Of a DNA stretch of 64,000 nt, positions 49,118-49,489 are shown piece after piece. This DNA is from Escherichia coli. GTDB lineage: Bacteria; Pseudomonadota; Gammaproteobacteria; Enterobacterales; Enterobacteriaceae. The notes under the pieces were generated by a model. That model saw nothing but the letters and a program-made list of their open reading frames with translations. It was not told where the DNA came from and searched no databases. Each line of letters begins with the position of its first letter. The stretch's first letter is position 1. The stretch is taken from the NCBI RefSeq assembly GCF_044324785.1, contig NZ_CP172127.1. One strand, given 5' to 3'. The position numbers and the translations under genes were made by a program.

Positions 49118-49489
49118 ATGAATAAACTGCTTTTACTGTTGATAATGCTCTATCAACGACATCTTTCTCCTCGCAAAGGATACCGCTGTGCTTACAGTGT
49201 GTTGTACCAAACGCAGGGATGTTCGGGAGCAGTCAAAGAGATTATTCAACAGAAAGGTGTTATTGCAGGCTGGGGCGAGATACGTCAGCGTTTTGCAGAT
49301 TGCCGACTTGCGGCACTGACAATCAGGCAGAAGCAACACCTGAACGAGGTAATACGTAAAAAGAAGAATAATAATTGTGATTGTTCCGGGTGCGATGGTG
49401 CGGTCTGTCGTGATTGCGACATTCCGGTGCCGGATCTGGATTGTTCCTGGGACTGTTCTTCTCTACATATAAAGCGGTTTTTCCAATAA
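49118..49489 (+). CDS. YidD-like (DUF37) protein with cysteine-rich C-terminal extension
   Basis: 123-aa ORF; GGAG 6 nt upstream. N-terminal half aligns by eye with YidD (LYQRHLSP..G.RC...GCS...KGVIAGW...R...C). C-terminal tail CDCSGCDGAVCRDCDIPVPDLDCSWDC has 8 Cys in 27 residues. Confidence 0.55.
   Translation: MNKLLLLLIMLYQRHLSPRKGYRCAYSVLYQTQGCSGAVKEIIQQKGVIAGWGEIRQRFADCRLAALTIRQKQHLNEVIRKKKNNNCDCSGCDGAVCRDCDIPVPDLDCSWDCSSLHIKRFFQ

Follow-up and report, generated by a model that had tools for sequence, protein, structure and literature searches.

We analysed a stretch of 64,000 nucleotides of Escherichia coli contig NZ_CP172127.1 (the whole stretch is called the window here) and focused on a small gene at positions 49118–49489 on the plus strand, between hokA and cspA, which an earlier note made from the letters of the DNA had singled out. 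The gene encodes a paralogue of YidD. The interpretation that we favour, with slightly better than even confidence when taken as a whole, is that the protein is a functional, vertically inherited accessory member of the YidD family, that it represents an uncharacterised subfamily with a cysteine-rich tail, and that it may join a docking domain to a metal-binding or redox-active tail. The separate parts of this interpretation differ in strength. The identity and the evolutionary history of the gene are held with high confidence, and the metal or redox role of the tail, which is suggested by composition and analogy, is put forward tentatively.

The earlier note's open reading frame proved to be an intact frame of 123 codons on the plus strand, and its plausible ribosome-binding site, GGAG, is present and is kept in six Escherichia alleles, one of them at a synonymous divergence (dS, synonymous substitutions per synonymous site) of 0.34. 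The gene and its product can be divided as follows.

49118–49489, plus strand: coding sequence of the YidD paralogue, 123 amino acids, ATG start and TAA stop (open reading frame list and translation)
49109–49112, plus strand: ribosome-binding site GGAG, with a 5-nt spacer before the ATG (sequence)
49118–49315, plus strand: YidD-like domain, residues 1–66 (TIGR00278, PF01809, BLASTP, hhalign and alignment A3)
49316–49375, plus strand: basic linker, residues 67–86 (ending in IRKKKNNN), prolonging the long helix (AlphaFold2 and charge calculation)
49376–49456, plus strand: acidic Cys/Asp-rich cluster, residues 87–113, CDCSGCDGAVCRDCDIPVPDLDCSWDC (sequence, charge calculation and alignment)
49457–49486, plus strand: short basic/hydrophobic C-terminus, residues 114–123 (SSLHIKRFFQ; sequence and charge calculation)

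YidD-like domain, tail and subfamily

Using hidden Markov model (HMM) searches we confirmed that the N-terminal half is YidD/DUF37-like, as the earlier note had proposed. The protein scores 74.4 bits against the NCBIfam model TIGR00278 (YidD), for which the curated cutoff is 40, over residues 3–67 and profile positions 2–61 of 64; the match to Pfam PF01809 is weak (i-Evalue 1.4e-5, score 25.2, residues 3–63, model positions 2–57 of 67). BLASTP to K-12 YidD (b4557) gave 33% identity over 57 amino acids (E 6e-7), with C24 and C35 directly aligned. A profile of short-tail subfamily forms (alignment A5, without the window protein) was matched to K-12 YidD by hhalign with a probability of 96.4% and all three family cysteines in register, the register of C62 in the window protein following by subfamily alignment. 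Across the 66 subfamily sequences of alignment A3, the family cysteines C24, C35 and C62 are invariant, as are Y12, Q13, S17, P18, R19, K20 and G21.

Canonical YidD of E. coli (85 amino acids, encoded in the rpmH-rnpA-yidD-yidC operon) thus belongs to the same family, above the NCBIfam cutoff, and shares with the paralogue the aligned YQR.[LI]SP motif, three cysteines and a G-V-I-x-G segment, a core of similar size and a basic charge; neither protein has a solved structure. The two nevertheless differ in several respects beyond their low identity. Relative to canonical YidD, hhalign places a 5-residue insertion between the first and second family cysteines of the subfamily, and an invariant RKG follows the SP of the shared motif. 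The canonical C-terminus, CHP...GGxDPVP (CHPLHPGGDDPVP), is unmatched: the hhalign alignment goes no further than the third cysteine and that of BLASTP no further than residue 57, and the TIGR00278 and PF01809 matches both end short of the last model positions. In its place the paralogue and its relatives carry a long helix and an acidic tail with 7–8 cysteines. The claim that canonical YidD lacks such a tail held, since it has no cysteine after the third conserved one. We considered whether D-IPVP-D in the tail, 40 residues further on (G-P-IPIP-F in actinobacterial members), could be a displaced counterpart of DPVP, and set this aside as speculation because hhalign aligned none of it.

An AlphaFold2 model of the window protein, run on alignment A3, contains helices at residues 2–16, 25–30, 35–46 and 48–84. 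Block means of the predicted local distance difference test (pLDDT) lie at 85–96 over residues 21–80 and are lower (80 and 67) over residues 1–20. Residues 1–86 have a calculated isoelectric point (pI) of 10.3. When the model was searched against AlphaFold DB with Foldseek, the best structural neighbours were all entries named YidD, of 100–200 residues, from Klebsiella, Vibrio, Pseudoalteromonas, Pseudomonas, Beggiatoa, cyanobacteria and Deinococcus.

The acidic cluster of residues 87–113 holds seven cysteines (87, 89, 92, 97, 100, 109 and 113) and seven aspartates, with a pI of 4.05, bringing the whole protein to ten cysteines, three in the domain and seven in the tail. The earlier note had counted eight in the tail; the string that it quoted itself holds seven, and the eighth is found at position 111 in relatives, where the window and the sequence type 405 (ST405) alleles have Trp111 (TGG, 49448–49450). 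At a cysteine frequency of 1.15%, at least seven cysteines in 37 residues would occur with a probability of about 2e-7. An IP.PD..C.CDC motif is common to enterobacterial tails in the allele alignment, and no DNA tandem repeat underlies the tail. Pfam and NCBIfam scans gave no recognised metal-binding domain in the window protein. The spacing of the tail residues (CxC, CxxC and Cys-Asp pairs) is suggestive of metal binding; AlphaFold2 cannot model metal sites.

To place the protein among other bacteria we scanned one genome per species, 100,044 species in all, for the peptide pattern YQRx[LI]SPRKG. This gave 130 confirmed loci, in Escherichia, Klebsiella, Superficieibacter and Leminorella within the Enterobacterales and, beyond them, in Rhodobacterales, Burkholderiales, Neisseriales, many Actinomycetes, Deinococcus, Abditibacteriota and Cyanobacteria. 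A profile search over 1.84 billion cluster representatives (clusters at 50% identity) returned 2735 clusters at E<=1e-3 and 1907 at E<=1e-10. We define the subfamily by YQRx[LI]SPRKGxxCA, 10 residues between the first and second family cysteines and at least three cysteines after the third; the 5-residue insertion, the long basic helix and a C-terminal Cys/Asp-rich tail mark it as well. The window protein has YQRHLSPRKGYRCA at the first of these positions, 10 residues between C24 and C35, and its seven tail cysteines.

Of 80 genomic members, 78 have at least three cysteines after the third family cysteine (a contig end may have truncated one of the other two), and so do 163 of 165 fetched proteins. 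Subfamily tails have a median of 5.5–7 cysteines, and 10.6% of all tail residues are cysteine. In Proteobacteria the tail is long, variable and marked by repeats of the CD.xCD type, and it often has a basic end, a feature that recurs in many subfamily members. The tails of Actinobacteria and Deinococcus are short and nearly invariant (GVCCCG[PG]IPIPFRF). AlphaFold2 gave a mean pLDDT of 58 for a short actinobacterial form, which is uninformative on whether CCCGPIPIPF packs against the domain. One protein of Klebsiella sp. RHBSTW-00215 (P0013) has a normal domain followed by a tail that looks frame-shifted, with four cysteines and unrelated sequence, and may be a natural case of tail inactivation.

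Distribution and origin at the glyS–cspA locus

Of 5426 complete E. coli genomes, 5424 have canonical yidD at >=99% identity; its place is the rnpA-yidD-yidC operon. The gene described here lies instead between hokA and cspA, unlinked to yidC, and was found in 112 of the same 5426 genomes, as a single and always chromosomal copy. Because the canonical gene is near-universal at another locus, the window gene is a paralogue of YidD and not its orthologue; one is core, the other accessory (2% of E. coli). Many carriers resemble the ST405 lineage; strain N3 matches the window best (99.0% over 24 kb).

The open reading frame is already in the databases, whereas the earlier note knew of no description of such a paralogue. 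In each of the 40 carrier genomes listed, out of 112, the Prokaryotic Genome Annotation Pipeline (PGAP) has given it the name 'membrane protein insertion efficiency factor YidD', RefSeq annotates the same locus as 'yidD' in the four loci that were fetched, strain N3 included, and entries from Klebsiella and in UniProt/AlphaFold DB are likewise named YidD. This name stems from the HMM match. The protein belongs to a variant subfamily of a known family, and our literature search found no paper on this subfamily.

Comparison with the hokA–cspA interval of K-12 showed that the frame is missing there. The interval between cspA and ysaE measures 138 nt in K-12 and 532 nt in the window, and the difference can be traced to a single segment.

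49034–49484, no strand assigned: variable segment, 451 bp long in the window and about 58 bp in the common allele of K-12-type E. coli genomes (alignments A1 and A4)

The first ~65 bp of this segment may be a diverged counterpart of the ~58 bp in K-12-type genomes, and the rest, from just upstream of the ribosome-binding site to just before the stop codon, is absent from them, so that the loss in most E. coli appears as a clean deletion between these two points. The K-12-type ~58 bp align only weakly with window positions 49034–49099 (~50–60% identity), whereas both flanks are ~99% identical; either the haplotypes are old or the remnant diverged fast after the deletion.

The same slot is occupied in Klebsiella sp. 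MISC125, K. aerogenes, K. spallanzanii and two Superficieibacter species: the gene lies downstream of glyS and converges on cspA, beyond which yiaG, yiaF and ghrB follow. Against a divergent Escherichia lineage (L094, with an allele of 130 amino acids) the dS of the paralogue is 0.342, in line with its flanking genes glyS (0.333) and yiaG (0.459); against Klebsiella it is saturated, as it is for yiaG. On these sequence comparisons, the simplest reading is that the YidD paralogue is ancestral at the glyS–cspA locus of Enterobacteriaceae and has been vertically inherited and repeatedly lost. Because the slot is shared with other genera and the dS is on a par with that of the flanks, the presence of the gene in a minority of E. 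coli is best explained by retention, and the common K-12-type state by loss. Homologous recombination between close relatives may also have exchanged the gene.

We further estimated selection by the Nei–Gojobori method, as the ratio of nonsynonymous to synonymous rates (dN/dS). In deep comparisons this ratio is 0.05–0.17 for the domain and mostly 0.2–0.5 for the tail, the latter ranging from about 0.05 to 0.75 across all informative pairs. Within E. coli, values of 0.4–1.1 derive from only 3–7 substitutions and are uninformative. The frame is intact in every allele examined, including the one at dS 0.34. The deep comparisons show the paralogue to be under purifying selection.

Candidate function and alternative explanations

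PMC8082313, which points to in vitro transport and cross-linking, lists canonical YidD as a putative insertion efficiency factor, and according to PMC3573977 it assists YidC; both cite Yu et al. 2011 for YidD. No transmembrane (TM) segment or obvious signal peptide was seen by eye in the paralogue, no predictor having been run, and the protein would thus be cytoplasmic. The inner membrane, or the surface of the ribosome or insertase, would be the docking site of its basic, helical domain with the YidD fold, as reported for canonical YidD; this membrane or translocon association is proposed because of the homology between the two. A metal such as Zn, Fe or Cu could then be bound by the acidic, disordered Cys/Asp cluster, or oxidation of its thiols could act as a switch, and such an event might modulate or specialise the activity of the docking domain.

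A comparable arrangement exists in E. coli SlyD, a helper protein with a metal-binding, disordered C-terminal tail rich in His, Cys and Asp. In both proteins a folded helper domain is followed by an unstructured tail of potential metal ligands (Cys and Asp). The likeness is an analogy: the two have no relationship in sequence or fold, the tail of the paralogue contains no His, and its metal binding is only putative. A Pfam match of residues 78–100 to the FeoB-associated Cys-rich membrane protein family (FeoB_associated, PF12669) is at chance level (E 0.027); we treat this weak compositional match as a low-complexity coincidence. PF12669 proteins have an N-terminal TM helix, and the paralogue has none. 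The PF01809 name 'haemolytic domain' derives from B. subtilis YtjA, whose function is likewise known from indirect evidence (PMC3573977). YtjA belongs to the same Pfam family and is likened to the paralogue by family only, and no lytic activity is implied for the latter.

Several observations weigh against the proposed function. E. coli can do without the gene, since ~98% of its genomes lack it, and no metal-handling, redox or insertase gene is its conserved neighbour across lineages. Apart from the chance-level match above, no Pfam family matches the tail, and in the PDB there is neither a sequence match nor a Foldseek match better than E 6.4. The tail is poorly conserved beyond its composition and is predicted to lack order (most of residues 94–123 have a pLDDT below 50), which would also fit a non-specific or decaying appendage, and the window allele has lost an otherwise conserved tail cysteine through C111W. 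Finally, the terminator-like hairpin 3' of hokA implies that transcription of the paralogue must start from a promoter of its own within 48991–49108, and a consensus scan from this hairpin to the start codon found no sigma-70-like promoter.

The main rival explanation is that the gene is a redundant or decaying YidD duplicate which does the canonical job or none, with a tail that is a tolerated low-complexity appendage and a gene that E. coli is losing. The absence of the paralogue from 5314 of 5426 genomes, the within-species dN/dS of 0.4–1.1 (from the same 3–7 substitutions), C111W, the frame-shifted tail of one Klebsiella protein, the predicted disorder and the lack of a conserved partner gene would all agree with it. 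Yet the frame has stayed open in all alleles up to dS 0.34, deep dN/dS values are 0.05–0.2, a high tail cysteine content is kept across phyla in ~98% of members, and the CCCGPIPIPF ending is strictly conserved in Actinobacteria. Decay is disfavoured because, if neutral, it would preserve neither the cysteine content of the tail nor this ending, and we regard it as unlikely, though worth keeping in mind.

The earlier note had seen signs consistent with a horizontal origin, and the corresponding explanation, a horizontally acquired low-GC insert that encodes a novel metal-binding YidD functionally tied to the hokA toxin locus, is largely refuted already and very improbable. Its appeal lay in base composition, in the rarity of the gene (2% of E. 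coli genomes) and in one distant homologue on a phage-like contig. With a GC content of 45.4% and a GC content at third codon positions (GC3) of 43.5%, the gene is indeed poorer in GC than the window (51.2%), glyS (55.2%, GC3 60%) and cspA (49.3%), as the note had stated of its neighbours, but not than hokA (36.6%) or yiaG (44.3%), which are equally AT-rich. Transfer was rejected on the synteny across three genera and the dS parity with flanking core genes; mobile-element genes, repeats and att-like features are absent from the segment borders, and PADLOC and PHROG gave no match, on which ground a defence-system or phage protein was rejected as well. The tie to the toxin also fails outside E. 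coli, where Klebsiella has an ABC-F gene separating hok from the paralogue and the K. aerogenes locus lacks a called hok gene.

Just as improbable is a precursor or effector whose active part is the Cys-rich C-terminus, such as a peptide akin to those that are ribosomally synthesised and post-translationally modified (RiPPs) or a 'haemolytic' membrane-active peptide, with the YidD-like part as leader or carrier: the former family name after YtjA (PMC3573977) and a variable Cys-rich core that resembles RiPP precursors in composition are outweighed by an N-terminal part that is a conserved, confidently folded domain and not a leader, by the lack of an obvious signal peptide by eye, and by the absence, in any lineage, of a radical S-adenosylmethionine (radical-SAM), cyclase, protease or exporter gene as a conserved neighbour.

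The preferred interpretation, a functional accessory paralogue, can be extended. The window protein could be the E. coli member of a broad, unrecognised 'YidD2' family (at least ~2000 clusters at 50% identity) in which the tail is a genuine metal- or redox-active module, an extension that we consider doubtful. If it were true, the family might couple metal delivery or the thiol-redox state to membrane-protein biogenesis; or its role might be wholly unrelated to YidC. The name YidD, now given to all members alike, would then be mistaken for the whole subfamily.

The value of the finding lies mostly in annotation and evolution; this is a small accessory gene without conserved partners. An HMM labelled 'equivalog' gives the name YidD to thousands of paralogues that differ in motif, tail and genomic context, and the hokA–cspA interval of K-12 proves to be the deletion state of an older enterobacterial gene slot. 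Should the tail bind metal or sense redox state, the paralogue would be a tractable starting point in E. coli for work on this widespread, unstudied family and on the YidD fold, which is poorly understood. Carrier strains, for example of the ST405 lineage, are at hand.

Neighbouring genes and flanking features

Genes within 5 kb of the paralogue at 80 loci were clustered all-against-all. No partner gene is shared across phyla among these loci, only lineage-specific arrangements, and a conserved operon partner was rejected accordingly. Because no partner is conserved across lineages, the adjacency to hokA is incidental. The link to a type I toxin locus drawn in the earlier note was not borne out, and a functional link to hokA or cspA was rejected on the comparative context.

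In Klebsiella (L003–L007, about 3263–4914) glyS/hok and the paralogue are separated by a gene for a 539-amino-acid ABC-F ATPase, which shares the paralogue's strand and lies ~90–120 bp upstream of it. Its best match, NF000355 (ribosomal-protection-like), scores 341 bits, below the cutoff of 380. The two genes could form an operon of a translation factor with a YidD-like protein. Escherichia and Superficieibacter lack the ABC-F gene. The K. aerogenes loci contain the paralogue without a called hok gene. In Rhodobacterales the context consists of genes for an acyl-CoA dehydrogenase, a glutathione S-transferase (GST), the yidD-like protein, a thiolase and a FadB-like protein. Such beta-oxidation-type clusters occur at L015, L019, L026, L029, L030, L034, L039 and L063, and in five Rhodobacterales loci the yidD-like gene starts 4 nt downstream of the GST gene, which suggests co-expression with the GST-like protein. 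In Kocuria a zinc-dependent dehydrogenase-like (Zn-ADH-like) gene lies upstream of the yidD-like gene. One further locus (L009, 4261–4854) encodes a homologue of 197 amino acids (P0021) with a very long Cys-rich tail, among small unannotated open reading frames by an endolysin gene (phrog_938); this region may be phage or prophage.

In the window, the gene is flanked by the following features, of which hokA and cspA lie outside the unit.

48810–48962, plus strand: hokA, upstream neighbour (NCBIfam NF007290, 131.9 bits; Rfam sok match at 48661–48812)
48971–48990, plus strand: terminator-like hairpin 3' of hokA (sequence)
49491–49518, minus strand: stem of the intrinsic cspA terminator (sequence and fold; Rfam cspA mRNA model)
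49543–49755, minus strand: cspA, convergent downstream neighbour (open reading frame list, RefSeq annotation and Rfam)

The cspA mRNA model RF01766 scores 481.8 bits, and its end falls at 49488. The stop codon of the paralogue ends at 49489, just before the cspA terminator as the earlier note had it, but the distance of 5 nt given there is corrected to 6 nt to the G+C core and 1 nt to the extended stem. Read on the plus strand, the same hairpin has a folding energy of -12.4 kcal/mol and is without a U-tract, making it a weak terminator for the paralogue at best.

On the upstream side, 155 bp separate the end of hokA from the paralogue. A homologue of the small K-12 protein YsaE is encoded at 48939–49010 on the minus strand (MRNAVRKAGITSRQTLLLFQIAG here, MRNAVSKAGIISRRRLLLFQFAG in K-12), antisense to the 3' end of hokA, which it overlaps. 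The paralogue starts 108 bp away from the start of this homologue, in divergent orientation, and a control region may be common to both. The hokA/mokA/sok module (48661–48962, plus strand) looks intact, with a sok Rfam match of 124 bits, a hokA of 50 amino acids and no IS150 upstream, whereas IS150 adjoins hokA in K-12 and ST405-type genomes and mokA and sokA are pseudogenes in K-12. Further upstream, a sub-threshold Rfam match to the enterobacterial small RNA STnc370 (48496–48562, minus strand; 46.3 bits, gathering threshold 54) lies over the glyS terminator region.

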